Assembly: GCA_027923505.1 (NCBI GenBank)
Contig: BROI01000003.1
Span: forward strand, 434,001 to 498,000
Direction: 5' to 3'
Length of the DNA: 64,000 bases
Source of the DNA: Mayamaea pseudoterrestris
Taxonomy: Eukaryota
In this document: in pieces, positions 9,374 to 55,689 of the stretch
Numbering within the stretch: the stretch's first letter is position 1
How the letters are laid out: each line of letters opens with the position of its first letter
Made by a program: the position numbers and the translations under genes
The notes under the pieces: generated by a model
What the model saw: the letters and a program-made list of their open reading frames with translations, nothing else
What the model was told of the DNA's origin: nothing
Databases searched by the model: none

Positions 9374-9768
9374 TGACAAGTCGCAGAGCGGCGAAGTCAA
9401 GAGCCCGAACCCTAATTAGCTTGTGTCGAGTCCGCAGCTGTCGTATGTGACATGTGACTGAAGAAAGTGCGCAACCGTCGTGTGGATGCGTTGTATGAAT
9501 GGAACGACCAGTTACGACTGATGTAATGTGATTGAAAGAAACGGATTGATCGGATGATCTTCCGAGTGGTCGATGTAGCGATGTAGCGATAAGCTCACAA
9601 TATAGAACTACTAGTTTGCGACGAGAGTGCAGTCGTATTCGTGTAGTGGCGAGCGCAAGACTATTCGATGAGCCATCTCCATCAAGAGCTGTACAGACCG
9701 TGGCCAAGGACCCTGTATCGGAGCTTTTTGGAGGTAAGACGTTGACTGCGAAATCGTCAACGGTGTTA
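9374..9768 (+). repeat. 5' LTR (TGACAAG...GGTGTTA)
   Basis: Matches 15676-16070 with 3 substitutions found by eye. Confidence 0.96.
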
Positions 9769-9865
9769 GATTAACATTTCAGTGCTTCGAGAGCAAGAAC
9801 GAGCGAGGGAGCTATCGTGACACATTCGTCTGCAGCGAGTCCGATTCCTCTGATCAACCTCCAAC

Positions 9866-15721: not shown

Positions 15722-16070
15722 CTTGTGTTGAGTCCGCAGCTGTCGTATGTGACATGTGACTGAAGAAAGTGCGCAACCGTCGTGTGGATGCGTTGTATGA
15801 ATGGAACGACCAGTTACGACTGATGTAATGTGATTGAAAGAAATGGATTGATCGGATGATCTTCCGAGTGGTCGATGTAGCGATGTAGCGATAAGCTCAC
15901 AATATAGAACTACTAGTTTGCGACGAGAGTGCAGTCGTATTCGTGTAGTGGCGAGCGCAAGACTATTCGACGAGCCATCTCCATCAAGAGCTGTACAGAC
16001 CGTGGCCAAGGACCCTGTATCGGAGCTTTTTGGAGGTAAGACGTTGACTGCGAAATCGTCAACGGTGTTA
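15676..16070 (+). repeat. 3' LTR
   Basis: Direct repeat of 9374-9768 (offset 6302). Confidence 0.96.
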
Positions 16071-31600: not shown

Positions 31601-34600
31601 GGCTGCGCAACAGAGATGAGTAATAGCGCTGGGGTCTCGCTGCAATCATATTGGTGACAACATCGGTCTCGGGTTCGTTGACATTCCAAACCCCTGCAGA
31701 AGCCGTATCTACCCAAATCACCAGAATGATGCCAGCATCGTTATTCCCGGGCTGTACCAACAAGATGGTATGCTTGGCTGGGGTCTCAGAAGACTGCAAT
31801 CATATTGGTGACAGCTTGTCACCAGTCAGCCTGCAGATGCAGCCTTGACTTCGCGCCCTACAGCAACCCCTTCATTATTCAGCTGCGCTACAAGCTGGTT
31901 TTGCCCAGATGGTATCTCAGTAGACTGCAATGTGATTGGTGACAACTTGTCTCACCACGTCTCAGCCTGCGAATGCATTTATACATTCGCGCATTCATAC
32001 ATTCACACATTCTTCACGCATTCACTCATTCATTCCCCGCATTGCATTCCATATTCACGCATTCACGCATTTTCATGCATTCACACATTCACGCATTCAC
32101 GCCATTCCGCGTCACGCATTCACATTCGTGCATTGCGCATTCACGCATTCACGCATTCACGCATTCCCCCATTCACATTGGCATTCATGCGTCCATTCAT
32201 GCATTCACGCTTACGCATTCCGCAGCAAGATGGTAGGCAACTGGTGTGTCTCAGGGATGGCAATGTATTTGGTGACGCTTGTCACCAGTCTCAGCCACCC
32301 AGATGCTGTGACTTTCGACGCCTACAGCAAGCCCTGTAGGTGCCCAAAATACACCAGAATGGTGCCAACATCATTATTCGAGCTGCGCTACAAGATGTGA
32401 AGCAGCGATATCTCTGGGGATGGCAATGTAGTTGGTGACAACTTCGCCAGTTTCAGCCTCAGATGCCGGGACATTCAACCCCTAAGCATGCCCTGTGCCC
32501 AATTCACACCGGAAGGTGCCAGCATCTCATTTTTCAGGCTGCGCTACAAGATGGTAGGCTTGGCTGGTGTCTCGGTGGCCTAATGTGTTTTGGTGACAAC
32601 TTGTCACCGGTCTCGCTCCCCAGGTGCCTGTGACATTCAAACGCCCCTACAGCAGGCCCTGTAGGTTCAAATTTCACCAGAATGGTCCCAACGTCATTTT
32701 AGCTGCCCTACAAGATGGTAGGCTTGGCTGGTGTCTCAGGGGATGGCAATGTATTTGGTGACAACTTGTCAATCTCAGCCTCCAGTGCCGCGACCTTCAA
32801 ACGCCACCCTACAGCCGGGCCCTGTAGGTGCCCCAGATCCCGAGGCGTTGCCAACATCATTTCCGCTACAAGATGGTGGCTTGGCTGGTGTGTCTCGGGG
32901 ATAGCAATGTATTTGGGGACAACTTGTCACCAGTCTCACCTTCCGGATGCCGTGACGTGCAAACCCCCTACGGCGGCCCGTAGGTGCCCAACTTACTCCA
33001 GATTGGTGCCAGCATCATTATTCAGGCTGCGCTACAAGATGGTGCGTTTTGGCTGGTTTCTCGGGTGGCAATGTTGAACTTGTCGCCAGTCTCAGCTTCG
33101 CGCGGATCCGTGACGTTCAAAACGCCTCTACAGCAAGCCCTGTAGTTGCCCCAGAATGCACCTGGTTGGTGCCAACATATGTTTGTCAGGCTGCGCTTCT
33201 GGTGGTAGGCTTGGCTGGTGTCTCGGGGATGGCGTATTTGGTGACAACTTGTCCTGCCAGTCTCACTTCGCAATGCCGTGACATTCAAAAACGCCCCTAC
33301 AGCAAGCCCTGTAGGTGCCCAAATACGAATGGTGCCAGCATCGTTCAATGGTGGCTTGCTGTTGGTGTCTCAGGGGATGGCTTGTGTATTTGGTGACAAA
33401 CGCGTGTCCAGTGTCAGTCTCCGGATGCCGTGACATTCAAAGCGCCCCTACAGCAAGCCCTGTAGGTGCCCAAAGACACACCAAGAATGTGCCAACATCT
33501 CGGCCGCTGCGCTACAGGATGAGTAGGCTTGGCTGGTGTGGGGATGGCGTATGTATTTGGCAACTTGTACCCAGATGCCGTGCCTTCAAACGCCCCTAGC
33601 AAGCCCTAGTAGGTGCCCAGAAAACCTGAAGTAGTTGCCAACATCATTATTCAGGCTGTGCTACAAGATGGTAGGCTTGGCTGGTGTCTCTGGGATGGCT
33701 GATGTATTTACGGTGACAACTTGTCACCAGTCTCGGCTTTCAGAGCCGTGACATTCAAACGCCCCTACAGCAAGCCGGACAGGTGCCCAAATTACACAGA
33801 GGCCACCATCTGTGGCTGCGCTTGCTCACAAGTGTGAGCTGGTGGTCTCGGGGATGGCAATGTATTTGGTGACAACTTGTCACCAGTCTCAGCCCGCAGG
33901 TGATGCCTATATCAAACGCCCCTACAGCAAGCCCTGTAGGTGCCCAAAATACACCAAGAATGGTTGCCAACATCATTATTCAGAGGCGCTCACAGATGGT
34001 AAACGGCTGGTGTCTCAGGGGATGGCAATGTGCATTTTGGTGACAACTTGTCACCAGTCTCAGCCTGCAGATGCCGTGACATTCAAAGGCCCCTACAGCA
34101 AGCCCCTGTAGGTGCCCAAATACACACCAGAATGGTGCCAACATCATTATTCAGGCTGCGCTACAAGATGGCACAAGCTGTGGCTGGTGTCTCAGGGGAT
34201 GGCAATGTATTTGGTGACAACTTGTCACCAGTCTCAGCCCGCAGATGCCGGAAATCAAACGCCCTACAGCAAGCCCTGTAGGTGCCAAAATACACCAGCA
34301 TGGTGCCAACATCATTTTTCTGGCCACACTACAAGATGGCAGGCTTGGCTGGTGTCTCAGGGGGGATGAGCAATGTATTTGGTGACAACTTGTCACCAGT
34401 CTCGGTCCCGCAGATGCCCTGACACATTCAAACGCCCCTACAGCAAGCCGTAGGTGCCCAAAATACACCAGATGGATGCCAACGTCATTATTCAGGACTG
34501 CGCTACAAGGTGGTAGGCTTGGCTGGTGTCTCAGGGGATGGCAATATATTTGGTGACAATCTTGTCACCAGTCCTTCAGCTCCGGCAGATAGTGTGTGGA

Positions 34601-34850
34601 CATTCAAACGCCTACAGCAAGCCCTTGTAGGTGCCCAAATCACACCAGGTTCCTACACTTGCATGCAACTTGTCACCAGTCTCAGCCCGCAGATGCCATG
34701 ACATTTTAACGCCCCTACAGCAAGCCCTGTAGGTGCCCAAAATACACCATAATGGTGCCAACATCATTAAGCAGTCTGCGCTACATGATGGCATGCCTGG
34801 CTGGTGTCTCAGTAGACTGCAATGTGACTGGTGAGAAGTTCTCACCACTC
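16612..34850. repeat. Satellite B, 169-bp monomer, roughly 105-108 copies
   Basis: CAGGCCATG at 16761, 16930 and so on (period 169). One highly diverged monomer at ~16612-16760. The array is clean at 16.75-22.0 and 25.2-27.8 kb and indel-rich elsewhere. Confidence 0.97.
31970..32222. repeat. Imperfect (GCATTCAC)n simple repeat interrupting satellite B
   Basis: CATTCACGCATTCACG... runs over ~250 bp inside the noisiest part of the array; it may be a base-calling artefact. Confidence 0.6.
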
Positions 34851-35010
34851 ACAGTCAGCCAGCAGCTGCATCGTAGCGGTTATGAGTGTCGTATTGGTAC
34901 TCGGAGGACCTGCGCGATCATCGACAACCACCATGGGAGAAGGAGTTTGAGCGCCGACGTTAATCTCATACTTCTTAAACAGACATTCATACTTGATCTC
35001 ATCATCTGGC

Positions 35011-38000
35011 ATGTCTCTTGTTTCGATCCATGCCGACTCGGCGCATCCTGGCAATCAATGTGACAATGACGATGACGATGATTCTCCATTTCCGATTCAA
35101 CCCATCAAGCGAAAGGCAAGAAACGCGCCTGCGATAGGAGCCGGGAAGAAGATCAAAATTAATATCTTTTCGAAAGCAGCAGTATCAGATGACTCGTCTG
35201 CGAGCCATGATCTAAATACGGGTGCATTCAATAGTGCCGATGAATTGACGATTCAATCAGCTTCATTACCGATCTCAAATTCGGATAATTCTCAATCATC
35301 AGCGCGTGCATTTGCTAATAATGTCAACAAACAAGCTACGCAGTCGACTTATATAGATGAAACGGCGCTGATTCCGTCGGATGAACTTGATGATACGCTT
35401 GCATTCTTTGCCGAAACGCACGAGGACCAAGACCCTGCCTTTCAACGATTGGAACAACTGGCGCGTCGACAAGCTCTACAGGAAAAGCTTGCTTCACTCA
35501 AGACGCAGGATACAGTCGCTCGTCAAGAGATTGACAAGTTTATTAACGATCAGCTACAAGCCAAGCTCGCCAACGCAGAACTTTCATTGGAAAAGTACAA
35601 GCTCCGAGCGTCGCAGGACGAAAAGAAGGACTCGCAGAAACTCTATGAAGTATTCACGGAAAAGTCATCACACAATCTGCAAAAAATCAATCAAAGCATG
35701 AAGCTGTTACGGAACCGCCACACCGCCGAGCTACAAAACGCCATGCAGGCGCATCAGCAGCATCAACAGCAACGAAGCAGTAGTATCAATCCGAATGAGC
35801 AGCAACAGTTCGCAGCCGCCGGGCAGCAAGAGTGGCACAACATTGCTCAGCAGATTCAAATCAAGCATCAGCGCCAGGTAGCAGAATTTGCGCAAAAGTC
35901 GGACGAATTGAAGAATCGCATGGCGACGGAGTACAAGCGCGAGCAGGAAAAAATAAAGGCGCACTTGGATCATCGGCTTGGACAAATTCAAGTGAATCGG
36001 CGAAAAATGACGGAGAAATTGACTGTGTCTTTTCAGCAAATACGACAACGGTATATCAAGCGGCACTTGCAAAAATTGTTGGAGCAAGAGCAAGCAATCG
36101 TGGCCGAAATTCGAGCCTTGGATATAGGGACTGGTTCTGGCAGTGCTGATGGAGCAGAGACGACTATTGATCATAATATTACCAGCTTGATGGAGACGCA
36201 GTCGTCCGAACATCATCACCATGATGCGCGCTCCGTTGCCAAGCCGGACAGGATTGAATTCCGACAGCCTGCGCCAATCACCTCGAAACCAATCTGGGCA
36301 CGAGGAAAGTGGTCGGGCGCGGCTGCCAGGCACAAGCACCGCAAGACAGTCATGAGTCACTCATCGAGGCAATTGTCGCTAGAGATTCATAACGAAGGAC
36401 TTTGGATCTCCCTCATTGTGCACAAAGACAGTCACGGCGAAAGCAATCCCAAGTCGACGAGTGACGACAAGAAGAACAGCTCGGGCAATGAGCAGTTCAT
36501 TCCTTGGGGGATTCGCGCACATGATATTCTCTGCAGCGTTACTTGTGGCGAAATCCCCGCTGCTTTCGAGCAGTTTAACTTTGGGGAAGCGGCTGAACTG
36601 CAGAGTGGACAAGTGCGATGCGTCTTGGTGGATCTACGAACGAGCGAGGAGTCTGCCGCAACATTGAGAGCAACCTCCATGAGTGAACATGAGCATGAAC
36701 ATTTGGCGGAGCTCAAAAAGCGAGCCGACATGCTGATAACTATGGCGGCTGAAACCGAGAAGCAATCTGCTGCTGTGACGCAGGAGGAAAAGGAATATAT
36801 TACTGCCGCAGATGCCGCAAGGAAGGATATTGACAAGTACAAGCGGGCGCAGGACGAGTTTTTACACAAATTTCGGCAGTACTTTGGACCTGGTACGTCA
36901 GTAATGTTTCTAATCTCGAATTTGTTCTCTACCATGTCTCTCACCGCCGTGCATACTAGACGGATCGATTATCGCTCCGAATCCTAGCGACCGACAAAAG
37001 CTGGAGGTACACGTTGCTGACATTAAGTCAAAGCTGGCTCGCGCGGAGGAGAGGGAGATGCTCGCCAAGCAAAAGACGAATGAAATAAAGTCGAAAGGAG
37101 AGCAACTCGCACAGACTTTAAAAGTTGCGCAGCGAAACGTGGTTTTGATAACTAATGCAGTCAAGCAGCGGCAAGTCATTCTCTCAGGGCGAGCGACGCA
37201 GAAGCAAATGGAAGCGTTTGCGGCGGAGCGTTCGGGATCACGTATCAGAGATTTTATTGGTTCATTGAAAAAAGTTGCAGCCCACCGACGCGAGCTTTTA
37301 AATGAAAAGAAGAATAGCAATGTCAGCATGGCATGGCTGCAGTCGTTTCCCGGACTCACTTCGGCTCTAAAAAAGAGTCTTTGGCATAAGATGCACCGGC
37401 GGAAACAACAGATTGTTTTAAGACCTACTCACGCCTCGTTTTTAAAAGAGTTGCGGTCCAGTGCATTAGAAAATCTAAATTGTGGAAGCCATAAACCTTT
37501 GAATGTCGAAGACCAGTTGGTGAAAGTGGAGCAACTTTTTCTTTTAGCAACGCATCCTGTTGCCGAAAACAGCGTGTCGACTGTCCCTAGTGCACGGGGT
37601 GATCTACCCTGGGCAGAGCCAGGTTGTCTGTTAGATTTGTCTGTGGAGCCTACCATCTCGCGTGACCGGATTCTTCCTTGCCGACCGTCCTACTCGGTCC
37701 TTGAGGACAATTTGTCAGAGATCGCTTCTGCACCTGGATGTCAAGCCGCTTCTCTTCTTCGTTCGTCACACTTCAAATGTTTGGCCGCTCCTTTATCAGC
37801 CGTTGCCGTCGCTTCGAGTCCAGCAGAAGCAGGGATTGTACCCAGTTCCCCGACGAACAGTAAGTGGTTTGATTCGAGCCAGTCTTTTCTTTCAAATGCA
37901 CGTACTTTGCTAACATGTCCGTATCTTCGTTTATACAGAATCTCAGTCGAAAGACCCACTTCACTTACCAGATAACGCTATCATCGACGGTTATACGTTT

Positions 38001-39107
38001 GTGACGAAGCTACCGTCGACTGCTAAGCAGTTACCAGCAACTCAAGCACAACCCAGACAGCCGCAAGCAAGGCGAAAGTCCGGCTCATCCATAGAGCCTC
38101 CACCTGCCAGCGTAAAACCTGCCCCGGCTATTCGACAGCAGTCAACGTCATCAGTGCAAAGCATGAATGCCGCCCACACTGTCGCCGCATCGCAGAAGGC
38201 AGACTCTGATTCCAAGATCCCAAGACGCAGGAACTCTTCTTCCAAAGTAACCACTCCTCCAAACCTGAGACCGTCAGATCTAGGTGTCAGTCAGCGGTCT
38301 GTCGCACCTCCATCTGAATCGCCACGCAACATTAAGAATGTTCTCAATGCTAACTTTGCATCTGCTGTCAGCAGTCAAGGATTATTACCAGCTCAATCAC
38401 CAACCACCCCTGGAAAAATACCTTTAGCGTCCCCGTATGGCCAATTTGTTGGACAGCTCCCGGTTCAACAAAAGCAGAACATGTCGCAAACGCAAAACAT
38501 GCACCAGCAACCATTTTTTCCACAACCGCCGCAGCTACAGCAGCAACAACAACAACAACCACAATCAGGCCCCCAGGCCAGTCCTAACTTTATGACACAA
38601 CAGCAGAGGCAACTCGCCTTGCAGCAAATGATGCAGCAACAGCAACAGCGACAGATAGCTGGTTCGTCGCCACGTCGCACCCAGCAGATGTATTCGCCAC
38701 CACAAGCCATGCAGATGCAGCAGTTTTATGCGCCTCTCAACCATCAAAATTTGAATATTCGAGGACAACAGTATCCGCAGCAACCTCCGATGCCGCCATT
38801 GGGACACGCCATGCAGCAGCGACCAATGCAACCCATGCCGCAGCATGCCATGGGCATGGATCGTGGGCAGCAGCAGCAGCAGGTACCTCCGCAAGGACCA
38901 ATACATTCACCACCAGCAACGCAGCAGCAGCAGCAGCAGCAGCAGCAAGGTCAATCTGGACTCTCTTCTCCGCAGGCGCAACGCCCTCTCGTCCAAGCGG
39001 CGCCGTCGCAAAACCAAGTTCATTCGCCGCAGCAGCCACAAGGACCATCGCATCCACTGCTGCCGCCGCGACAGTCTCCGCAGCAAGAACCACAACCGCC
39101 ACCGTAG
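35011..39107 (+). CDS. Hypothetical ~1316-aa protein, coiled-coil N-terminal/central part and Q/P-rich C-terminus; exons 35011-36892, 36960-37859, 37939-39107
   Basis: Three long ORFs join in frame through introns GTACGT..CTAG (36893-36959) and GTAAGT..ACAG (37860-37938). The first in-frame ATG after an upstream stop is at 35011. No family recognised. Confidence 0.8.
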
Positions 39108-39520
39108 ATGTAACTCATTTATCTAATTTCTACTTGTTACTCTATTGTATAAGTGGTTGGTATAAATACGCTGATTGGAACTGGTTCTCACCTGGCGTTA
39201 CTCTTGCATACTGAAGATTTTGCTCCGTGCCGTTGCTTCGTTCGAGACTGCAGCTAGCGGTAGTTCGTTGGGAGTTTACAATAGCATGTACCGGTACAGA
39301 GTCTGCGATGGATGAGTAGCTGTCTAATAATGTATTGGTGTGTTTATGTTTATAAGAGTTACCCTTTCGAGTCATATTCTTCGACCGAGACGCTTGATAA
39401 ATTCTTGCTCTGCCTGTCGCCGGTCGTTATGTTTTTACAGCTGCCTTTCGGACTCGCTTGCAATCATGTATAGATAGGAGCAAGCCGCTAGCTGCTAATC
39501 ATAGATTCGTCGCTCATGTT

Positions 39521-40022
39521 TTACTTGTTGTGCGGCAAAAAGTGAAAGGCATCGTCGAGGAGCAAGACGAACGGAAAGAGCGTCAATGGGTATGCCCACC
39601 AGTTCATTTCCCACGGTCTGTCCGAAATAAAACGAATAAATAATGTGAGCAAGTGAATAATTAGCAAGGCAAATGTCGTTTGATTCACTCATTCACCCTA
39701 TTCATTCATTCATCACTTCATTCACATATACTCACCGAGTATTCGCTTCCATGGCTGGATCAACCCACTTGACCTCCTTGATTTCGCCAGTGTTCATGTC
39801 CTTGACGACATTGCGAGGCGTCTGCGTCGTGGAAAGATTACTCAGGGCATCGGCATCCGAGCTAGACTCTACCGTTTCAAGTCCCTTGTTTTCGTTATTG
39901 TCAGTGGCGAACATGGAGCGAGCAAACGACGAGGAAGCGACTGCTCGGGATGATGGAGGAATGACGGAGAAGCCCGAGACGGATGCGACAGCAACGACCA
40001 GTAGGAGACTAAAGAGCTTCAT
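39521..40022 (-). CDS. Small predicted plastid-targeted membrane protein (~127 aa); exons 40022-39736, 39617-39521
   Basis: Signal peptide MKLFSLLLVVAVASVSG followed by F at +1 (ASAFAP-type motif) and an S/R-rich transit peptide. Intron GTGAGT..ACAG joins to a hydrophobic tail WWAYPLTLFPFVLLLDDAFHFLP. The 3' end is uncertain (possible extra exon). Confidence 0.75.
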
Positions 40023-40367
40023 CACGATTGTTCAGGTAAAAAGATGGAAGAAATGCGTAGAAAAAGACTTGAATGTGAGCGAGAAGCTGGTTTATAAGGA
40101 TGGTGGAGCGTAGCGTGACAGCAAGATCTCGCTGCGGAACGAAAGGCGACTTCAACTTGCTTGAATACCGATCCGACTCACATGCAAGACGGAGTCATGG
40201 TGCGATAGGTCCTGATCAATTGGATATCCGCCTCCCTTCTACCAGTACAGACTATGGTGCATGCAGTAGCCTACACTACCTCAACACAAGCTTCATTTAC
40301 ATATTGAAATAAAGAAAAAAAAGCAAAATTCACTAGTCATGGCAAGCAAACACTTATGTATGCATTA

Positions 40368-43300
40368 GTGAGACTCAGCTTGCAGATCTAACAACTTGTT
40401 GGATCTGCTAGCAGTGCACCTCAAGTGGCACTTCAGACTGCCTGAACGGCCTGCCAATACTGGAATACAATGCGCATTGTGTTTCCATTTGATTCGGACT
40501 CAAAGACTTGTCACCTTGGGTGTGGAACCCATCCCTTTGCCATGAGACTCTGCACATTCAACCAATGGTTGAATGTGCCAGCGGTGCACCCTTTTTGGCT
40601 ACAGGAATCATCAGCGCTGCCTTCTGAGCCCTGAGATCCTTTCCAATTCATGTTTGGTGTCATGATGGGCCAATGATTTGGTCAGTTGCGCCCATTCCAC
40701 TCTCCACCACCATGTATGCCATGGTGAGAATCAGCTTGCAGATCCAACAACTTGTTGGATCTGCTAGCAGTGCACCTCAAGTGGCACTTCAGACTGCCAG
40801 AATGGCCTGCCAATAAAGGACTACAATGAGCATTGTGTTTCAATCTGATTTGGACTCAAAGGCTTGTCACCTTGGGTGTGGAACCCATCCCTTGGCCATG
40901 AGACTCCGCACATTCATTCAATGGTTGAATGTGCCAGCGGTGCACCCTTTTTGGCTACAGGGATCATCAGCGCTGCCTTCTGAGTCTGAAATCCTTTCCA
41001 ATTCATGTTTGGTGTCATGATAGGCCAATGATTTGGTCAGTTGCACCCATTCCAGTCTCCACCACCATGTATGCCATGGTGAGACTCAGCTTGCAGATTA
41101 AACAACTTGTTGGATTTGCTAGCAGTGCACCTCAAGTGGCACTTCAGACTGCCATTATGGCCTGCCTATAAAGGAATACAATGAGCATTGTGTTTCCTTT
41201 TGATTAGGACTCAAAGACTTGTCACCTTGGGTGTGGAACCCATCCTTTTGCCATGAGACTCCGCACATTCAACTAATGGTTGAATGTGCCAGCGGTGCAC
41301 CCTTTTTGGCTACAGGGATCATCAGCGCTGCCTTCTGAGCCCTGAAATCCTTTTTCATTCATGTTTGAGGTCATGATGGGCCAATGATTTGGTCAGTTGC
41401 GCCCATTCCAGTCTCCAACACCAGGTATGCCATGGTGAGACTCAGCTTGCAGATCCGACAACTTGTTGGATCTGCTAGCAGTGCACCTCAAGTGGCACTA
41501 TAGACTGCCAGAATGGCCTGCTAATAAAGGAATACAATGAGAGTGTTTCATTCTGATTAGGACTCAAAGACTTGGCACCTTGGGTGTGGAACCCATCCCT
41601 TTGCCATGAGACTCCGCACATTCAACCAATGGTCGAATGTGCCAGCAGTGCACCCTTTTTGGCTACAGGGATCATCAGCGCTGCCTTCTGAGCCCTGAAA
41701 TCCTTTTTAATTCATGTTTGAGGTCATGATGGGCCAATGATTTGGTCAGTTGCGCCCATTCCAGTCTCCACCACCATGTATGCCATGGTGAGACTCAGCT
41801 TGCAGATCCAACAAATTGTTGGATCTGCTAGCAGTGCACCTCAAGTGGCACTTCAGACTGCCAGAATGCCTGCCAATACAGGAATACAATGAGAGTGTTT
41901 CATTCTGATTAGGACTCAAAGACTTGTCACCTTGGGTGTGGAACCCATCCCTTTGCCATGAGACTCCGCACATTCAACCAATGGTCGAATGTGCCAGCAG
42001 TGCACCCTTTTTGGCTACAGAGATCATCAGCGCTGCCTTCTGAGCCCTGAAACCCTTTTAAATTCATGTTTGGTGTCATGATGGGCCAATGATTTGGTCA
42101 GTTGCGCCCATTCCAGTCTCCAACACCAGGTATGCCATGGTGAGACTCAGCTTGCAGATCCGACAACTTGTTGGATCTGCTAGCAGTGCACCTCAAGTGG
42201 CACTATAGACTGCCAGAATGGCCTGCTAATAAAGGAATACAATGAGCATTGTGTTTCAATCTGATTTGGACTCAAAGGCTTGTCATCTTGGGTGTGGAAC
42301 CCATCCCATTGCCACGAGACTCCGCACATTCAATCAATGGTTGAATGTACCAGTGGTGCACCCTTTTTGGCTACAGGGATCATCAGCGCTGCCTTCTGAG
42401 CCCTGAAATCCTTTCCAATTCATGTTTGGTGTCATGATGGGCCAATGATTTGGTCAGTTGCGCCCATTCCAGTCTCCACCACCGTGTATGCCATGGTGAG
42501 ACTCAGCTTGCAGATCCAACAACTTGTTGGATCTGCTAGCAGTGCACCTCAAGTGGCACTTCAGACTGCCAGAATGGCCTGCCAATAAAGGAATACAATG
42601 AGCATTGTGTTTCAATCTGATTTGGACTCAAAGACTTGTCACCTTGGGTGTGGAACCCATCCCTTGGCCATGAGAACCCGCACATTCAACCAATGGTTGA
42701 ATGTGCCAGCGAAGCACCCTTTTTGGCTACAGGGATCATCAGGGCTGCCTTCTGAGCCCTGAAATCCTTTCCAATTCATGTTTGGTGTCATGATGGGCCA
42801 ATGATTTGGTCAGTTGCGCCCATTCCAGTCTCCAACACCAGGTATGCCATGGTGAGACTCAGCTTGCAGATCCAACAACTTGATGGATCTGCTAGCAGTG
42901 CACCTCAAGTGGCACTTCAGACTGCCAGAATGCCTGCCAATAAAGGAATACAATGAGCATTGTGTTTCAATCTGATTTGGACTCAAAGACTTGTCACCTT
43001 GGGTTTGGAACCCATCACTTGGCCATGAGAACCCGCACATTCAACCAATGGTTGAATGTGCCAGCGGTGCACCCTTTTTGGCTACAGGGATCATCAGCGC
43101 TGCCTTCTGAGCCCTGAAATCCTTTCTAAGTCATGTTTGAGGTCATGATGGGCCAATGATTTGGTCAGTTGCGCCCACCCATTCCAGTCTCCACCACCAT
43201 GTATGCCATGGTGAGACTCAGCTTGCAGATCCAACAAATTGTTGGATCTGCTAGCAGTGCACCTCAAGTGGCACTTCAGACTGCCAGAATGGCCTGCCTA

Positions 43301-46300
43301 TAAAGGACTACAATGAGCATTGTGTTTCCATTTAATTTGGACTCAAAGACTTGTCACCTTGGGTGTGGAACCCATCCCTTTGCCATGAGACTCCGCACAT
43401 TCAATCAATGGTTGAATGTGCCAGCAGTGCACCCTTTTTGGCTACAGGGGTCATCAGCGCTGCCTTCTGAGCCCTGAAATCCTTTCTAAGTCATGTTTGG
43501 TGTCATGATGGGCCAATAATTTGGTCAGTTGCGCCCACCCATTCCAGTCTCCACCACCATGTATGCCATGGTGAAACTCAGCTTGCAGATCCAACAACTT
43601 GTTGGATTTGCTAGCAGTGCACCTCAAGTGGCACTTCAGACTGCCAGAATGGCCTGCCAATAAAGGAATACAATGAGCATTGTGTTTCCGTATGATTAGG
43701 ACTCAAAGACTTGTCACCTTGGGTGTGGAACCCATCCTTTTGCCATGAGACTCCGCACATTCAACCAATGGTTGAATGTGCCAGCGGTGCACCCTTTTTG
43801 GCTACAGGGATCATCAGCGCTGCCTTCTGAGCCCTGAAATCCTTTCCAATTCATGTTTGGTGTCATGATGGGCCAATGATTTGGTCAGTTGCGCCCATTC
43901 CAGTCTCCACCACCATGTATGCCATGGTGAGACTCAGCTTGCAGATCCAACAACTTGTTGGATCTGCTAGCAGTGCACCTCAAGTGGCACTTCAGACTGC
44001 CAGAATGGCCTGCCTAGAAATACACCAAGTTTCTGATTTGGACTCAAAGGCTTGTCACCTTGGGTGTGGAATCCATCCCTCTGCCATGAGACTCCGCACA
44101 CTTGTCAACCATGTTGGGTGTGCCATGCACCCTTTTGCTACATGAGCATCATCACGCAGCCTTCTGAGCACTGAAAATCCTTTTAATTCATGTTTGGTGT
44201 CATGATGGGCCAATGATTTGGTCAGTTGCGCCCACCCATTCCAGTCTCCACCACCATGTATGCCATGGTGAGACTCAGCTTGCAGATCCAACAACTTGTT
44301 GGATCTGCTAGCAGTGCACCTCAAGTGGCACTTCAGACTGCCAGAATGGCCTGCCAATAAAGGAATACAATGAGCATTGTGTTTCCATTTAATTTGGACT
44401 CAAAGGCTTGTCACCTTGGGTGTGGAACCCATCCCTTTGCCATGAGAACCCGCACATTCAACCAATGGTTGAATGTGCCAGCGGTGCACCCTTTTTGGCT
44501 ACAGGGATCATCAGCGCAGCCTTCTGAGCACTGAAATCCTTTCCAATTCATGTTTGGTGTCATGATGGGCCAATGATTTGGTCAGTTGCACCCATTCCAG
44601 TCTCCACCACCATGTATGCCATGGTGAGACTCAGCTTGCAGATCCAACAACTTGTTGGATCTGCTAGCAGTGCACCTCAAGTGGCACTTCAGACTGCCAG
44701 AATGGCCTGCCAATAGAGGGATACAATGAGCATTGTGTTTCCATATGATTAGGACTCAAAGGCTTGTCGCCTTGGGTGTGGAACCCATCCCTTTGCCATG
44801 AGACTCCGCACATTCAACCAATGGTTGAATGTGCCAGCGGTGCACCCTATTTGGCTACAGGGATCATCAGCGCTGCTTTCTGAGCCCTGAAATCCTTTCC
44901 AATTCATGTTTGGTGTCATGATGGGCCAATGATTTGGTCAGTTGCGCCCATTCCAGTCTCCAACACCAGGTATGCCATGGTGAGGCTCAGCTTGCAGATC
45001 CAACAACTTGTAGAATATGCTAGCAGTGCACCTCAAGTGGCACTTCAGACTGCCAGAATGGCCTGCCTATAAAGGAATACAATGAGCATTGTGTTTCCAT
45101 TTAATTCGGACTCAAAGGCTTGTCACCTTGGGTGTGGAACCCATCCCTTTGCCATGAGACTCCGCACATTCAATCAATGGTTGAATGTGCCATTGGTGCA
45201 CCCTTTTTGGCTACAGGGATCATCAGCGCTGCCTTCTGAGCCCTGAAATCCTTTCCAATTCATGTTTGGTGTCATGATGGGCCAATGATTTGGTCAGTTG
45301 CGCCCACCCATTCCAGTCTCCACCACCGTGTATGCCATGGTGAGACTCAGCTTGCAGATCCAACAACTTGTTGGATCTGCTAGCAGTGCACCTCAAGTGG
45401 CACTTCAGACTGACAGAATGGCCTGGCAATTAAGGAATACAATTAGCATTGTGTTTCAATCTGATTTGGTCTCAAAGGCTTGTCACCTTGGGTGTGGAAC
45501 CCATCCCTTGGCCATGAGACTCCGCACATTTGACCAATGGTTGAATGTGCCAGTGGTGCACCCTTTTTGGCTACAGGGATCATCAGCGCTGCCTTCTGAG
45601 CCCTGAAATCCTTTCTAAGTCATGTTTGGTGTCATGATGGGCCAATGATTTGGTCAGTTGCGCCCATTCCAGTCTCCACCACCATGTATGCCACGGTGAG
45701 ACTCAGCTTGCAGATCCAACAACTTGTTGGATCTGCTAGCAGTGCACCTCAAGTGGCACTTCAGACTGCCAGATTGGCCTGCCAATAACGGAATACAATG
45801 AGAATTGTGTTTCCATTTGATTTGGACTCAAAGGCTTGTCACCTTGGGTGTGGAATCCATCCCTCTGCCATGAGACTCCGCACATTCAATCAATGGTTGA
45901 ATGTGCCATTGGTGCACCCTTTTTGGCTACAGGAATCATCAGCGCAGCCTTCTGAGCCCTGAAATCCTTTTTTATTCATGTTTGGTGTCATGATGGGCCA
46001 ATGATTAAGTCAGTTGCGCCCGTTCCAGTCTCCACCACCATGTATGCCATGGTGAGACTCAGCTTGCAGATCCAACAACTTGTTGGATCTGCTAGCAGTG
46101 CACCTCAAGTGGCACTTCAGACTGCCAGAATGCCTGCCAATAAAGGAATACAATGAGCATTGTGTTTCAATCTGATTTGGACTCAAAGACTTGTCACCTT
46201 GGGTTTGGAACCCATCACTTGGCCATGAGAACCCGCACATTCAACCAATGGTTGAATGTGCCAGCGGTGCACCCTTTTTGGCTACAGGGATCATCAGCGC

Positions 46301-49300
46301 AGCCTTCTGAGCACTGAAATCCTTTCCAATTCATGTTTGGTGTCATGATGGGCCAATGATTTGGTCAGTTGCACCCATTCCAGTCTCCACCACCATGTAT
46401 GCCATGGTGAGACTCAGCTTGTATATCCGACAACTTATTGGATCTGCTAGCAGTGCACCTCAAGTGGCACTTCAGACTGCCAGAATGGCCTGCCAATAGA
46501 GGGATACAATGAGCATTGTGTTTCCATATGATTAGGACTCAAAGACTTGTCACCTTGGGTGTGGAACCCATCCCTTTGCCAGGAGACTCCGCACATTCAT
46601 TCAATGGTTGAATGTGCCAGCGGTGCACCCTTTTTGGCTACAGGGATCATCAGCGCTGCCTTCTGAGCCCTGAAATCCTTTCCAATTCATGTTTGGTGTC
46701 ATGATGGGCCAATGATTTAGTCAATTGCGCCCATTCCAGTCTCCAACACCAGGTATGCCATGGTGAGACTCAGCTTGCAGATCCAACAACTTGTAGGATA
46801 TGCTAGCAGTGCACCTCAAGTGGCACTTCAGACTGCCAGAATGGCCTGCCAATAAAGGAATACAATGAGCATTGTGTTTCAATCTGATTTGGACTCAAAG
46901 ACTTGTCACCTTGGGTGTGGAACCCATCCCTTGGCCATGAGACTCCGCACATTCAACCATTGTGCCAGCGGTGCACCCTTTTTGGCTACAGGGATCATCA
47001 GCGCTGCCTTCTGAGCCATGAAATCCTTTCCAATTCATGTTTGGTGTCATGATGGGCCAATTGTTTAGTCAGTTGCGCCCATTCCAGTCTCTACCACCAT
47101 GTATGCCATGGTGAGACTCAGCTTGCAGATCCGACAACTTGTAGGATCTGCTAGCAGTGCACCTCAAGTGGCACTTCAGACTGCCAGATTGGCCTGCCAA
47201 TAACGGAATACAATTGCACCTCAAGTGGCACTTCAGACTGCCAGAATGGCCTGCCAATAAAGGAATACAATGAGCATTGTGTTTCCGTATGATTAGGACT
47301 CAAAGACTTGTCACCTTGGGTGTGGAACCCATCCTTTTGCCATGAGACTCCGCACATTCAACCAATGGTTGAATGTGCCAGCGGTGCACCCTTTTTGGCT
47401 ACAGGGATCATCAGCGCTGCCTTCTGAGCCCTGAAATCCTTTCCAATTCATGTTTGGTGTCATGATGGGCCAATGATTTGGTCAGTTGCGCCCATTCCAG
47501 TCTCCACCACCATGTATGCCATGGTGAGACTCAGCTTGCAGATCCAACAACTTGTTGGATCTGCTAGCAGTGCACCTCAAGTGGCACTTCAGACTGCCAG
47601 AATGGCCTGCCTAGAAATACACCAAGTTTCTGATTTGGACTCAAAGGCTTGTCACCTTGGGTGTGGAATCCATCCCTCTGCCATGAGACTCCGCACACTT
47701 GTCAACCATGTTGGGTGTGCCATGCACCCTTTTGCTACATGAGCATCATCACGCAGCCTTCTGAGCACTGAAAATCCTTTTAATTCATGTTTGGTGTCAT
47801 GATGGGCCAATGATTTGGTCAGTTGCGCCCACCCATTCCAGTCTCCACCACCATGTATGCCATGGTGAGACTCAGCTTGCAGATCCAACAACTTGTTGGA
47901 TCTGCTAGCAGTGCACCTCAAGTGGCACTTCAGACTGCCAGAATGGCCTGCCAATAAAGGAATACAATGAGCATTGTGTTTCCATTTAATTTGGACTCAA
48001 AGGCTTGTCACCTTGGGTGTGGAACCCATCCCTTTGCCATGAGAACCCGCACATTCAACCAATGGTTGAATGTGCCAGCGGTGCACCCTTTTTGGCTACA
48101 GGGATCATCAGCGCAGCCTTCTGAGCACTGAAATCCTTTCCAATTCATGTTTGGTGTCATGATGGGCCAATGATTTGGTCAGTTGCACCCATTCCAGTCT
48201 CCACCACCATGTATGCCATGGTGAGACTCAGCTTGCAGATCCAACAACTTGTTGGATCTGCTAGCAGTGCACCTCAAGTGGCACTTCAGACTGCCAGAAT
48301 GGCCTGCCAATAGAGGGATACAATGAGCATTGTGTTTCCATATGATTAGGACTCAAAGGCTTGTCGCCTTGGGTGTGGAACCCATCCCTTTGCCATGAGA
48401 CTCCGCACATTCAACCAATGGTTGAATGTGCCAGCGGTGCACCCTATTTGGCTACAGGGATCATCAGCGCTGCTTTCTGAGCCCTGAAATCCTTTCCAAT
48501 TCATGTTTGGTGTCATGATGGGCCAATGATTTGGTCAGTTGCGCCCATTCCAGTCTCCAACACCAGGTATGCCATGGTGAGGCTCAGCTTGCAGATCCAA
48601 CAACTTGTAGAATATGCTAGCAGTGCACCTCAAGTGGCACTTCAGACTGCCAGAATGGCCTGCCTATAAAGGAATACAATGAGCATTGTGTTTCCATTTA
48701 ATTCGGACTCAAAGGCTTGTCACCTTGGGTGTGGAACCCATCCCTTTGCCATGAGACTCCGCACATTCAATCAATGGTTGAATGTGCCATTGGTGCACCC
48801 TTTTTGGCTACAGGGATCATCAGCGCTGCCTTCTGAGCCCTGAAATCCTTTCCAATTCATGTTTGGTGTCATGATGGGCCAATGATTTGGTCAGTTGCGC
48901 CCACCCATTCCAGTCTCCACCACCGTGTATGCCATGGTGAGACTCAGCTTGCAGATCCAACAACTTGTTGGATCTGCTAGCAGTGCACCTCAAGTGGCAC
49001 TTCAGACTGACAGAATGGCCTGGCAATTAAGGAATACAATTAGCATTGTGTTTCAATCTGATTTGGTCTCAAAGGCTTGTCACCTTGGGTGTGGAACCCA
49101 TCCCTTGGCCATGAGACTCCGCACATTTGACCAATGGTTGAATGTGCCAGTGGTGCACCCTTTTTGGCTACAGGGATCATCAGCGCTGCCTTCTGAGCCC
49201 TGAAATCCTTTCTAAGTCATGTTTGGTGTCATGATGGGCCAATGATTTGGTCAGTTGCGCCCATTCCAGTCTCCACCACCATGTATGCCACGGTGAGACT

Positions 49301-51105
49301 CAGCTTGCAGATCCAACAACTTGTTGGATCTGCTAGCAGTGCACCTCAAGTGGCACTTCAGACTGCCAGATTGGCCTGCCAATAACGGAATACAATGAGA
49401 ATTGTGTTTCCATTTGATTTGGACTCAAAGGCTTGTCACCTTGGGTGTGGAATCCATCCCTCTGCCATGAGACTCCGCACATTCAATCAATGGTTGAATG
49501 TGCCATTGGTGCACCCTTTTTGGCTACAGGAATCATCAGCGCAGCCTTCTGAGCCCTGAAATCCTTTTTTATTCATGTTTGGTGTCATGATGGGCCAATG
49601 ATTAAGTCAGTTGCGCCCGTTCCAGTCTCCACCACCATGTATGCCATGGTGAGACTCAGCTTGCAGATCCAACAACTTGTTGGATCTGCTAGCAGTGCAC
49701 CTCAAGTGGCACTTCAGACTGCCAGAATGCCTGCCAATAAAGGAATACAATGAGCATTGTGTTTCAATCTGATTTGGACTCAAAGACTTGTCACCTTGGG
49801 TTTGGAACCCATCACTTGGCCATGAGAACCCGCACATTCAACCAATGGTTGAATGTGCCAGCGGTGCACCCTTTTTGGCTACAGGGATCATCAGCGCAGC
49901 CTTCTGAGCACTGAAATCCTTTCCAATTCATGTTTGGTGTCATGATGGGCCAATGATTTGGTCAGTTGCACCCATTCCAGTCTCCACCACCATGTATGCC
50001 ATGGTGAGACTCAGCTTGTATATCCGACAACTTATTGGATCTGCTAGCAGTGCACCTCAAGTGGCACTTCAGACTGCCAGAATGGCCTGCCAATAGAGGG
50101 ATACAATGAGCATTGTGTTTCCATATGATTAGGACTCAAAGACTTGTCACCTTGGGTGTGGAACCCATCCCTTTGCCAGGAGACTCCGCACATTCATTCA
50201 ATGGTTGAATGTGCCAGCGGTGCACCCTTTTTGGCTACAGGGATCATCAGCGCTGCCTTCTGAGCCCTGAAATCCTTTCCAATTCATGTTTGGTGTCATG
50301 ATGGGCCAATGATTTAGTCAATTGCGCCCATTCCAGTCTCCAACACCAGGTATGCCATGGTGAGACTCAGCTTGCAGATCCAACAACTTGTAGGATATGC
50401 TAGCAGTGCACCTCAAGTGGCACTTCAGACTGCCAGAATGGCCTGCCAATAAAGGAATACAATGAGCATTGTGTTTCAATCTGATTTGGACTCAAAGACT
50501 TGTCACCTTGGGTGTGGAACCCATCCCTTGGCCATGAGACTCCGCACATTCAACCATTGTGCCAGCGGTGCACCCTTTTTGGCTACAGGGATCATCAGCG
50601 CTGCCTTCTGAGCCATGAAATCCTTTCCAATTCATGTTTGGTGTCATGATGGGCCAATTGTTTAGTCAGTTGCGCCCATTCCAGTCTCTACCACCATGTA
50701 TGCCATGGTGAGACTCAGCTTGCAGATCCAACAACTTGTAGGATATGCTAGCAGTGCACCTCAAGTGGCACTTCAGACTGCCAGATTGGCCTGCCAATAA
50801 CGGAATACAATGAGAATTGTGTTTCCATTTGATTTGGACTCAAAGGCTTGTCACCTTGGGTGTGGAATCCATCCCTCTGCCATGAGAACCCGCACATTCA
50901 ACCAATGGTTCAATGTGCCAGCAGTGCACCCTTTTTGGCTACAGGGATCATCAGCGCAGCCTTCTGAGCCCTGAAACCCTTTTAATTCATGATGTGGCAC
51001 TTCAGACTGCCAGAATGGCCTGCCAATAAAGGAATACAATGAGCATTGTGTTTCAATCTGATTTGGACTCAAAGACTTGTCACCTTGGGTGTGGAACCCA
51101 TCCCT
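40368..51105. repeat. Satellite C, ~356-bp unit (ancient dimer of ~170 + ~186 bp subunits), ~30 copies
   Basis: GTGAGA(C/A)TCAGC at 40368, 40724, 41079, 41435, 41788... The two halves align around GCCATG..GAGACTC..palindrome..GTGCACC. Confidence 0.97.
43618..50811. repeat. Near-identical tandem duplication of a 3597-bp block inside satellite C (43618-47214 = 47215-50811)
   Basis: Private variants and ORF-track entries recur at offset 3597 (43876/47473, 45223/48820, 46010/49607). There is an out-of-register junction at 47214/47215. Confidence 0.9.
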
Positions 51106-51503
51106 AAATGGGATTCGCAGAGTCTCATTCAGCAATGCCATGAAGCTCATTAAGTTGGTTTAAATAAGATCGCATTGGAAGGAATGTTCAAACCAGTAAT
51201 CATAGTGAAATGCAGCTCCAAGTAATGAAGATATTATGGTGTGTTGGATGTCGTTTGCCTAGTTTGCTGCCATTGGATGTGTGCCACTGGATGATCCTTG
51301 ATGGTCTAAATATATAGTATATACAAGTTGACAATTGCGTTATAGCATTTTTAATTACACCTTAAACTTTGAGTCCGGCCATTTGGTGCGTGAAAACAAT
51401 GTAGCAAATTGTGTTCAAGAGCTCACGGCATGCAACCTTCTAAGTCCTTTTTATACATCACACAGGATCGATATTGGCGGCAGCTTTCAAAGTTAGTTAC
51501 CTC

Positions 51504-54500
51504 TCATCGCAGCATGCGCTCAGCCCCATACACCAACACAGTATCCACCATCATCAGACCACCAATAAAGGTGGGAAAGCCAACGGATAGGACAAGCCCA
51601 TCCAAGACTCCGCTAACTTTGCTGCCTCCCATGTCAACGACGACAGCCGGCAGCTGACTGAGCTGAAACAAGTCGTTCAGCGGCGGGAAGCATTCTGTCA
51701 CCAATATGAAAAGCGTTGCGTAACAAACTTGAAGACTGCGGTAAAAAAGTTTATTCTCTGTCAAGTCAGCCATAAATGGGCGACCTCTGTAGTTGACTGC
51801 GAAAGTATTAACCGTGGCAAGGCAGGTGATCAAAAACGCTGTTGTATTTAGCGAGTTGGCGTTAAATGCCCCGTCAGGGACAAGGCTAGGATCAAATGGA
51901 TCGACAAAAGAAATGGAAACGTCCGTCACAAGCGCAATGGTGAAGCAATGTACTGCGCACTGGATACCAATCGACAGTAGTGCCCGGAGACACATGACCG
52001 ACGATGGCGGCCGCTCGGATGAGAGAATCGGCAAAGGATCCGCCCGTGTGATGAAGTAGAACAATGCGGTAATAACTATACCAAGAATTGTCATCTGACG
52101 ATCACCCTGCTTGACTCCATTTAGAAAGAGCTTGCTCAAAACCATTGCATTGACTAAACAATTGATGCCCAGAATTTTGTAGATACTTAACATCGTCACC
52201 AACGTACATCGTCCCTGCAAGAGAGGCAGATATTGGCAGCTTAGATAAGAAATTTCACAGCTCAAAATTTTTTTAATGTGTCAACTCACCTGTTGAATGA
52301 CATCCTTGCAGCACTTAATGGACACAGCCCTGGAAGTAAAGGGTGCTGCCACGGAGGCATCGCCTAATTCTAATTCATCTAACTGCTTCTCCGCTTCGCG
52401 GAGCTGGTGCAGCGGATTTTCCCCTGATCCATGCTTCCGTGCAATTTTGCATTTCTTTGCATGCGTCGACTTGGCAATGGCTTCCGAAGCATGCCTCTGC
52501 TTCGATTCGACCTCTGGTGCGGAAAGTATTGAGATACCAACTCTTGCTCGCTTCAAAGCGCCAACGTCGTTTGTGCCATCACCGCACATGAGCGTACAGT
52601 GCCCACCACAGTTGAATGCAGCAATCAGGGCTTCTTTTTGATGCGGTGCATGTCGTGCAAAGACCGAAATCAGAGGAACAAGTCGAGCCAATGCAGATTG
52701 CGCATCGGGATGTAGCAAAACATGCTTCTCATCCAAATGCTGGACATTATTGCGGTTGAGCGAAACTGCTGCTGCGGCCAAGTCGACCAATACGTCGCCA
52801 GTGATGCAGAACGACGCCTCTCCCCGCATGTCTTTAAGTTGCTTTATAGCATTGCTTGACAATTCGACCGATGGAGCATCTACCGACTTTTCGTCCAGGG
52901 AGACACATTCAAAGCTCGTCAAAGGGTCCGATAGATGCAACGCCTTTGACCTGCGCTTTTGTATATTGTAAACTATGTGCTTTCTCTTGACTATTGATAC
53001 TTGCTTGGCGACTTCTACAGCTGTCAGGAGCGCATCCCCGGTGCACATCAACACAGAGTGGCCACTTTTTCGCAGCTCCGTGACAACCGTTTTAGAATCT
53101 AATTTCAATGGACAATCCAAAACGAGGAATCCAGCAAACACAAGATTTTTCTCGAAGCTTTCTCTCCCGTTCGCCTTTAAATTTCGCAAATCTTTAAGCT
53201 TCCCAGCGTCGCCATAAGCCATGGCAAGCACGCGTCGTCCTTTGCTCATATGAAAACGTGCTGTCTCATCGTATTGGCTGGGCACTACCTTTAACATGTC
53301 TCTGACCGTCTCTGGTGCTCCTTTGCTCAGCGTATAAACCATTCCTTGACCTTCATTTTCCGTCACTAGCGTCGTCATGCGTTTCAGTTTGGACAAAAAT
53401 GTGTACCGATGCAGTACATGGTAAGCGTGCGACACTCGACCACCGGCCTCGTCCACCATAGCCACCGTATCGTTGCCGATGAGTCGATAACCAGTTTCCT
53501 GCAAGACTACTCGTTCCAGCGGATCACCAACGATGGAGCTCCGACCGCCATCTCCGACGAGTGCTAGTGAATGGCATGCTGCCATGACCATGAGTGAATG
53601 AACAGGTAGTGTCTTGTCATCTGCATTTGGCTGAATCATGTCGGTGGATACCAACATGCCTCCCTCGTCCAGGTAGCAGACACCCTTGAGCTGCATTTCG
53701 TCGCTTGTCAATGTACCGGTCTTGTCGAAACAAACGACATCCACGGCGCCCGCCCACGGAATGCGATGGATTTCCGTACAGTAGACTTGACATTTTTGCA
53801 TCAACGCCGCCACGCTATTCGTCACGGCCAAGCTCAGTTCCATGGGCAGCTCGGGCGGAACGACGGACGTTATGATCATGACAACGTGAAGTAGCAGTCG
53901 AAACCGGTTGCGTCGATCGTCATGCCAACCAGTCTTAAGAACAGTTGCGGCGGCAAAAATTGCGCAACAAAGAAGAATAAAAATGAAAATGTAGGTATCC
54001 ATGTTGGCATTCCCGTGCGCACCGGACTTTGACGACGAGTACGCCATGGTCCGCAGCAAGGAACCTTGGGTCGTTTCAAAGCCAGTCCGTAGTACGATGG
54101 CCACGACGCCACCATCAGGTGGTGAATATAAAGAGTTTTCGTGAGAGTTCGACGAGCCCTTTGCAATGACTTCCTTCGCAGCATCCGTATTCGTAGCCGC
54201 AATGAGACCGGTTCCAGCAAACAGAATTGACTCCTTGTGTTCCTTGTCCGTCAAATCGAGCAACGTTTCGTCGTCGTGCGGCGACTGTGATTCCTCCAGC
54301 GCATGCTTGAGCTGGGGCACCGACTCGCCCGTCAGGAGAGACTCGTCACAAACGGCCGTGCCAGCAATGAGCAAAACGTCGGCTGGAACAACCATTGTTG
54401 TATGTTCCGCAAAGTATTTTTGATTGCAGGATAGACTCATCAAGTCGCCCGGAAGAAGCTCGTGCGCGTAGACCTGCATCCATTGCGTTTGCCGTCTCAC

Positions 54501-55463
54501 GTAAACCTTTTGCCTTGCGCGCGTTCCGTTACTTCCAGCCTTTTGTAGCTTGGCTAGACTAACATGTCGCTGATAGGCAACGGTGCTTTCAAACAGCAGT
54601 AAGGCTAGTAGCGTGTAAATGGCGTAGTACCAGTACTCATCGAGGCACCATAGTCCGACGCAAAAGACTTGAAACAAGAACAATGGCGCAATCAATTGCT
54701 GACATAGTAGTTGCAAGTAGGTTGGTGGTTGGAGTGCACACCTATTGGGGCCGTAAATGGAGTGAGCCGTGGCAAGGGACGCCAAGGAGGCATGACCCTT
54801 CCAAGTAGACGTGTAAAACGATAGCGGCAAGTGAATTGGATAGAAGCGAGGTCGAAATATACGTGATGATGTACTGCGAGAGTTTGATGCAACTGTCTTC
54901 TTTTTCATTTCCTCGCTACTGCTTGCATTTTCCGATGCATGCCACAGCGCTTGATCCAAACGCTGCTCGCGAGAATCGCAAATGAAGACAGACTCGTGAA
55001 AGTTGCACCTCACTAAACCGTTTCTATGGTCATGCTCTAACGACACAATTCCAATCTCGCCGTCTTGAGAATTCCGTACCAATGCGTGCGTCCAAATGCT
55101 CAATGATTCATGTTTGCTGACAGTCCGAAAACCAACCATGGCACGCACGCCTACGTTCCATGTCGACGCTAGGACGAGCGACAAGTGCAGTAGCAGCGTC
55201 AATGAGAGTCCAAGACTAATGAATAGGCGATATTCTTGTAGTTGCTGTGAATGATCCAGACTGATCCAAGTCATGTACGCAATGCTAAAGGGAAATACGT
55301 CGAGTCGCATCAACGAGTGGCGAATTCGAAGCGGCGTGACGCTCGTTGGCGACGATGACTCATTATTCAAATTGTTGATTGCTGTCTCCTCAAGCGATTC
55401 GTCAAGAGTCGTCTCCTCCTTCTCCGCCTTGGCCGGTTGCTTGCGGTTTCGGAGGGACGCCAT
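51504..55463 (-). CDS. ATP13A1: P5A-type P-type ATPase (ER transmembrane-helix dislocase, Spf1/ATP13A1 family), ~1294 aa; exons 55463-52290, 52214-51504
   Basis: LTGES, PPELPMEL (P5A-type M4 motif), DKTGTLT, KGAPE, TGD, GDGTNDVGAL, GDASVAAPFTS. Intron GTGAGT..GCAG restores IQQ-GRCTLVT. Confidence 0.93.
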
Positions 55464-55689
55464 GGTGGAAGAAATTGTGCGACCATGGATGAAGCGTTTG
55501 CGGTCGGCAATTTCGTGTCGTATGCGATGCGATCAGTACCGCTTGATTGCAAAACGTCTTAACGTCTAACTGGTACTCGCCTCGAATCGACGGCCTCGAT
55601 GGACTCGGTTGATAGATTTACACCTCTCCTGCTGCTTCTCGCTTCTCGCATCTTGTCCTATCTAATTCTGACTCGCCCGCTATACAATC
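55464..55689. promoter_or_regulatory. Probable bidirectional promoter region (226 bp)
   Basis: Divergent predicted start codons at 55463 (-) and 55690 (+); inferred from geometry only. Confidence 0.5.

Follow-up and report, generated by a model that had tools for sequence, protein, structure and literature searches.

In a 64,000-nucleotide stretch of the genome of the pennate diatom Mayamaea pseudoterrestris (contig BROI01000003.1, positions 434,001 to 498,000; hereafter the window), we analyzed satellite C, a dispersed tandem-repeat family whose 356-bp unit contains two long palindromes (dyads), termed D1 and D2. Statistical comparison across the family shows that variants in the arms of D2 arise but, unlike variants in D1, rarely take over an array or give rise to a subfamily. 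The conserved entity is the sequence of D2 itself and not its symmetry. The mirrored differences that separate the two dyads probably arose by rare template-switch copying of one arm from the other, followed by repeat amplification. We would give an even chance to the full account, in which this template-switch origin is combined with a constraint on the sequence of D2. Mirrored differences by themselves are a known outcome of template switching and repeat amplification; what is new here is the asymmetry between D1 and D2, which provides an internal control within a single unit, in the form of two homologous palindromes whose hairpins are equally stable. Because only one of these palindromes is frozen across subfamilies differing by ~22%, recognition of sequence becomes separable from structure.

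Both 27-bp dyads occur with exactly the positions and sequences given in a preliminary description of this DNA (42510-42536 for D1 and 42680-42706 for D2), spaced 170/186 bp apart in the unit, at unit positions 20 and 190. The mirrored differences reported there for left-arm positions 4, 7, and 12 are also present, with D1 and D2 differing at positions 4, 7, 12, 14 (the centre), 16, 21, and 24, or three mirrored pairs plus the centre base. The two dyads had been called perfect, which holds for the consensus but not for each copy: in the window array, D1 is perfectly symmetric in 16/30 copies and recognisable D2 in 11/26. Dyads of this length exceed chance expectation, as the longest perfect arm among 300 shuffled units was 11 bp and 0/300 reached 12 bp. 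Each folds as a 12-bp stem (z -5.8 to -8.3), with hairpin energies of -12.3 and -12.1 kcal/mol for D1 and D2, respectively. Homology between the halves of the unit, which the preliminary description took to be general, is demonstrable only in a block of ~50 bp around the dyad. Whole halves align with z=3.6 (0/1000 shuffles as good), while the flanks aligned alone give z=0.76 (210/1000 shuffles as good) and a profile of one spacer finds no match in the other at E<=10, so that no homology was detected between the spacers. Sequence comparison supports the homology of D1 and D2 to each other.

The proposal that symmetry is conserved while sequence is not found no support in a wider sample of the family. 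We searched the 30.6-Mb assembly (41 contigs) and obtained 618 profile hits in the fetched loci, of which 440 covered at least 320 columns and 412 were unique; this set is a partial sample of the genome's copies, and may include assembly errors. In the outer arms of these 412 monomers, 454 changes affect one arm and 6 are compensated, against 5.8 expected by chance. Dyads with gaps or insertions (42 for D1, 43 for D2) were excluded from the pair tables. Among the remaining monomers, the outer ten pairs carry 333 one-arm and 6 compensated changes in D1 (370 monomers; 5.3 compensated expected under independence) and 121 one-arm and 0 compensated changes in D2 (369 monomers; 0.4 expected). A one-arm form of D1 pair 7 occurs at 123 sites genome-wide, and its compensated form at 3; in an array of ~21 kb on contig C6, the majority of units have the one-arm form. 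One-arm changes or arm deletions have become the consensus of D1 in 16 of 35 arrays, leaving it intact in 19. Within the window array, moreover, mutation rates of the arms (0.036 for D1, 0.037 for D2; 19 unique monomers) match the background of 0.036. Accumulation of single-arm mutations at the background rate had been named beforehand as one half of the evidence that would refute conserved symmetry, and it was found in the window array and on D1 terminal branches genome-wide, though not on those of D2.

D2 stands apart in several comparisons. Pairwise divergence among the 35 array consensuses is 0.003 in the D2 outer arms, 0.051 in the D1 outer arms, 0.241 in the inner seven bases of D2, and 0.222 in the rest of the unit. 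The D2 outer arms are identical in 34/35 consensuses, among which no invariant run of five or more columns exists outside the dyads, and this freezing is unchanged after dropping the 6 arrays that were picked via the dyad pattern. In a tree from which the dyad columns were omitted, the D2 arms show 103 changes on terminal branches against a background of 192 (about half), and 9 on internal branches against 92 for base-matched columns (about a tenth). Columns matched on terminal counts still have 52.5 +/- 8 internal changes, compared with the 9 of D2, and the deficit extends to transversions alone (3 on internal branches vs 2.6 per column x 20). In all seven clusters tested, the D2 outer arms are less variable than the rest of the unit (0.006-0.021 vs 0.034-0.052). 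Genome-wide, 690 D2 sites and 392 D1 sites retain intact outer arms. On its terminal branches D1 changes at the background rate. With hairpins of equal energy, stability alone does not account for the unequal conservation of the two dyads. Depth in a sequencing-run check peaked over both dyads, and among the variants listed only D2 position 12 lay inside a dyad; this check was not used as evidence. It drew on four runs of a single study, three of them shallow and with the same variants as the fourth, and these were not treated as relatives.

For differences to be mirrored at three pairs, the arms must be coupled in some way. The linked changes that we observed fit template switching, a possibility offered in the preliminary description. 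By this mechanism, a rare switch of the polymerase would overwrite one arm, often together with the centre base, from the other arm, and amplification of the repeat would then spread the product. Pair 12 of D2 exists in two paired forms and one mismatched form (86/369 monomers), and in the tree the mismatch is the root state and is resolved in both directions. Moreover, the change G>T at D2 position 16 and the change A>G at the centre each map to a branch of 94 leaves, converting the mismatched inner form to a perfect one, as expected if the left arm and the centre were copied in a single event. The inner types of D2 form a network connected by single arm-copy events, and the centre is flipped to T in 56/163 monomers with symmetric CCA/TGG inner arms vs 1/86 with mismatched CAA/TGG arms. 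A similar pattern occurs in the 169-bp satellite family of the window, where a C/G-to-G/C swap affects both arms in 20/365 monomers; this swap haplotype has symmetry extended at position -10 in 15/20 monomers (4/280 in the common type) and the centre flipped in 11/20 (5/280). Arm homogenisation with spacer inversion is a published signature of template switching (PMC8604942; PMC5941160), and linked mirror changes with centre inversion are both present here. Since one or two switch events can yield all three pairs that had been read as compensatory, these are not three independent proofs of hairpin selection, and they may reflect only one or two events. An excess of compensated over independent changes, the sign of ongoing correction, was not found in the outer arms. 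Arm copying is rare relative to point mutation here, and not frequent now.

Neutral arm copying predicts compensated drift rather than stasis, leaving the freezing of D2 unexplained by copying; a constraint on the sequence of D2 would predict it. Statistically, the outer D2 arms behave as constrained in their sequence. As to the cause, we lean slightly toward a reading in which D2 is recognized as sequence; the simplest candidate would be a dimeric protein that binds duplex DNA and thereby favours arrays keeping D2. D2 would then be a putative duplex site for a dimeric DNA-binding protein, functionally comparable to a CENP-B box, whose binding would favour retention or amplification of arrays, and D1 would be a decaying second copy of the palindromic module. 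A more specific version appears quite improbable: that D2 is a cis-acting box bound by a putative dimeric diatom protein and needed for array retention or amplification, with hundreds of GC-balanced (guanine plus cytosine) satellite islands forming a CENP-B-box-like system, possibly polycentric or heterochromatin-nucleating. The centromeres studied so far in this lineage are, by contrast, AT-rich patches free of repeats.

Several observations weigh against this reading. No candidate D2-binding protein was found with PF00589 or PF03221 (CENP-B/pogo helix-turn-helix), although the latter profile is uninformative here, having matched nothing in the controls either. Constraint is not confined to D2, given that D1 is also moderately low on internal branches (53 vs 87-90 changes) and a non-palindromic block downstream of D1 likewise shows an internal-branch deficit. 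In the window array D2 is near background, both at all arm positions (0.037 vs 0.036) and at outer non-CpG positions (0.031 vs 0.038). As to the template-switch origin, ongoing arm copying is not seen in the pair-7 counts (123 one-arm sites vs 3 compensated), and centre flips of D2 rank as the top column (24/39), yet an ordinary column reaches 22/36. Parsimony counts on a single tree are approximate where monomers recombine, the 35 arrays represent about 8 related subfamilies and are therefore non-independent, and the 412 unique monomers from fetched loci are fewer than all genomic copies.

An entirely neutral history is unlikely in our view. Template switching would then have made the dyads, and D2 would seem frozen simply through common descent, a low local mutation rate, or conversion between copies. 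Several points favour such a history. The arms in the window array mutate at the background rate, column rates within and between subfamilies correlate (rho 0.42), and short perfect inverted repeats have been described as more conserved than their surroundings with no function invoked (PMC5941160). If copying were unbiased, however, every second corrected change should become fixed in both arms, and the D2 outer arms hold 0 compensated changes in 369 monomers; matching on terminal rates still leaves 9 vs 52.5 internal changes. Conversion would require tracts that homogenise the two D2 arms while skipping the 7 bases between them (divergence 0.241), and shielding of a hairpin from damage should protect D1 equally, whose terminal rate equals the background. 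Selection acting on the hairpin or cruciform structure itself, with any symmetric sequence acceptable and one extruded structure per nucleosome length, we regard as improbable. It would accommodate the 12-bp stems of both dyads and the retention of a stem of at least 10 bp by D2 in 279/369 monomers. Array ends lie within dyads in 22/81 cases vs 16.5% simulated (P=0.011), as do 27/116 internal deletions vs 15%, as for fragile structures, although the count of ends is weak, since those mapping to profile columns 1-6 and 352-356 were dropped as edge artefacts and duplicate junctions were merged by hand. We take this leaning of ends and deletions toward dyads as a weak hint of fragility. Set against structure are the equal folding energies and very unequal constraint of D1 and D2, the fixation of D1 mismatches or arm deletions in nearly half of the arrays (16/35), the absence of an excess of compensated changes, the lack of a strand bias in G.U wobbles (66:63 and 45:36), and the 174-bp family that shares the same clusters without a long dyad. 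The suggestion of one site per nucleosome length holds as a match in spacing, and as nothing beyond it. A hairpin in RNA with a strand preference was rejected, wobbles being unbiased and no Rfam match having been found at E<=1 in 39500-44500.

A layout of arms around a variable core resembles that of tyrosine-recombinase sites. D2 as a recombinase or transposase site (10-bp arms with a 7-bp core, or a transposon-end junction) that seeds new arrays would be in keeping with the dispersal of the arrays and the mild enrichment of their ends in dyads, but we consider it very unlikely. The genome has no PF00589 match, where the control was positive in 14/14 genomes, although divergent eukaryotic recombinases could be missed by this search. 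The array ends that fall in dyads are divided between D1 (14) and D2 (8), and hence are not D2-specific. Masked flank matches of at least 250 bp look like homologous loci or retrotransposon-type insertions and reveal no common array terminus, and the ends of the long terminal repeats (LTRs) in the window are unlike the dyads. The dyad as an LTR-LTR junction or an LTR-derived unit was similarly rejected: copia-type LTR ends differ from it, and array ends are not, as a rule, at the dyad centre.

Among systems described elsewhere, satellite C would appear, by analogy, to work most like the conserved-box satellites. D2 has the property that defines these, a short segment far more conserved than its monomer (0.003 vs 0.222). 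As described for the alphaCenH3 repeats of Meloidogyne (PMC8097292), C forms short, dispersed arrays of divergent monomers sharing a frozen box with dyad potential, and the mosaic arrays and GC-rich composition of those repeats are further likenesses. The 19-bp box of that system, in the account given there, is common to five unrelated families and is tied to CenH3 binding by chromatin immunoprecipitation, whereas the box of C belongs to one family and is known from sequence; the monomers of C are also longer (~350 bp) and its dyad is long and perfect. We found no box common to unrelated satellites here, as the C profile had no matches in the other families at E<=1 and the profile of satellite B, the 169-bp family, matched C only at E>=0.66. 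Homology of C to the 169-bp and 174-bp families was not significant. The Box 1/Box 2 satellites of Meloidogyne chitwoodi and M. fallax likewise have a short conserved segment in diverging monomers, with junctions between monomer types at the box (PMC3694981); there, junctions are reported always to lie in boxes, while in C only 22/81 array ends lie in dyads. Box 1 is said to resemble the CENP-B box, and that article does not use the words 'palindrome' or 'dyad'.

Dyad-rich centromeric satellites, as treated by Kasinathan and Henikoff (2018, PMC5889037), share with C a nucleosome-scale unit with dyads predicted to fold. The dyads discussed there are shorter than 10 bp and lie in CenH3-bound DNA, whereas C, known at the level of sequence, has 13-bp arms and several arrays per contig. 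In template-switched inverted repeats (PMC8604942, PMC5941160), as in C, arms become homogenised, the centre is inverted, and changes at several sites are linked, but the cases reported in those papers come from unique DNA of yeast and bacteria, and the process alone leaves unexplained the freezing of one of two equally stable dyads. Available descriptions of diatom centromeres (Phaeodactylum/Fistulifera) report low GC and no repeats (bioRxiv 10.1101/096016; 10.1101/2021.11.10.468027). The C array differs from these in its composition (48.7% GC), repetitiveness, and occurrence as several arrays per contig. Only two 100-bp windows in the 64 kb have a GC content of 32% or less, both just outside the C array, and rather than one domain per chromosome, separate C clusters are found on contigs C1 and C6, a layout that could still be polycentric. 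No published diatom satellite of this kind was found in the literature searched, most subscription journals lying outside the search. Should D2 indeed be bound by a protein, diatoms would have a functional satellite motif, and that same literature yielded no description of one. Conjugation assays exist in diatoms.

Across the genome, the dyad pattern with N at variable positions occurs at 1256 sites, a minimum for the family, while a reversed control gave 0. C arrays are present on at least 27 of the 41 contigs, often several on one contig, within mosaic clusters that also contain other 160-185-bp satellites and LTR elements; clusters lie at about 0.68, 1.24, 2.2, and 2.37 Mb on C1 and at 0.18, 0.98-1.0, 1.1, and 1.23 Mb on C6. 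Mean identity of the loci to the window-array consensus is 62-95%, and eight subfamilies have at least three monomers. A 4-bp insertion ahead of D1 is specific to the subfamily of the window array. In a 346-bp subfamily (L028:1-3088, L030:6736-9901), a third dyad with 8-bp arms is found that is absent from the window-array subfamily. There, compared with the window unit, D1 and D2 seem to have traded their downstream motifs, which suggests an exchange between the two modules.

In the window, satellite C forms a tandem array of 29.8 copies of the unit (40356-50991; Table 1). C shows the head-to-tail long units, many copies, and subfamily structure of a satellite, and it is a non-coding family, with no open reading frame (ORF) of at least 150 aa across the array and no Rfam match at E<=1 in 39500-44500. 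The observed/expected ratio of CpG is 0.2 in the array vs 1.15-1.27 in adjacent ORFs. This low ratio is consistent with long-term CG methylation of repeats, as described for diatoms (PMC9998398), and satellite C has probably long been methylated. The array contains an exact internal duplication, which either arose very recently at the higher-order level or is an artefact of assembly, and which leaves 19 unique near-full monomers for within-array rates. A 341-bp monomer type at 43922-44262 and 47519-47859 has a much more diverged middle part, as if derived from an older subfamily, and a broken D2.

Table 1. Features of satellite C in the window (positions counted from the first nucleotide of the window).
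Feature	Position	Strand	Remarks
Satellite C array, ~30 copies of a two-part 356-bp unit	40356..51105	+	48.7% GC, CpG observed/expected 0.2
Half-1 module, ~50 bp: short upstream motif, D1, short downstream motif	42497..42548	+	
D1, example copy, 13-bp arms and 1-bp centre	42510..42536	.	30 sites in array; one-arm changes tolerated family-wide
D2, example copy	42680..42706	.	Outer 10+10 bp near-invariant across arrays genome-wide; position 12 and centre variable
Half-2 module, example copy: matching upstream and downstream motifs flanking D2	43746..43793	+	
Exact 3515-bp internal duplication	43618-47132 = 47215-50729 (span 43618..50729)	+	Lag 3597

The array sits between convergent ORFs at 34951-39107 (+) and 51504-55532 (-), i.e., between two probable gene 3' ends. 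A region of contig C9 (C9:937000-946500, locus L021) is syntenic to window positions 36963-54388, with flanks that are 94-97% identical and the same array ends, but contains ~8 units compared with 30 in the window array. This suggests separately assembled haplotypes or subgenomes. Carriage of the C array within a mobile element was rejected, since among the other fetched loci the syntenic region of C9 is alone in matching the window flanks.

Besides genes, among them those for a P5A-ATPase and dymeclin, the window as a whole contains a copia-type element and satellites of three long periods (174, 169, and 356 bp). The named hits to dymeclin bear labels of pennate diatoms. The 169-bp satellite B (16752-29878 and 32226-34648) has its own dyad with 9-bp arms and an inner CAA-N-TTG core as in D1. 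In a minor haplotype the arms of this dyad lengthen to 12 bp, with a swap on both arms and the centre flipped. Conservation of the arms is only mild (2.83 vs 4.64 internal changes per column), and 11% of blocks are equally low. The 174-bp satellite A (1-3259) lacks a long dyad, has the strongest CpG depletion (observed/expected 0.08), and on several contigs adjoins arrays of C. A 13-bp minisatellite organized in higher-order units of ~380 bp (3587-5859) is flanked by satellite A and by fragments of retroelements. The copia-type LTR retrotransposon (9374-16070) has LTRs of ~395 bp, which agree at 99% in a matched stretch of 300 bp. It also has a target duplication of 5 bp and an uninterrupted frame of 1955 aa (RVT_2), and its relatives are found in or beside satellite arrays at two other loci (L034, L064).

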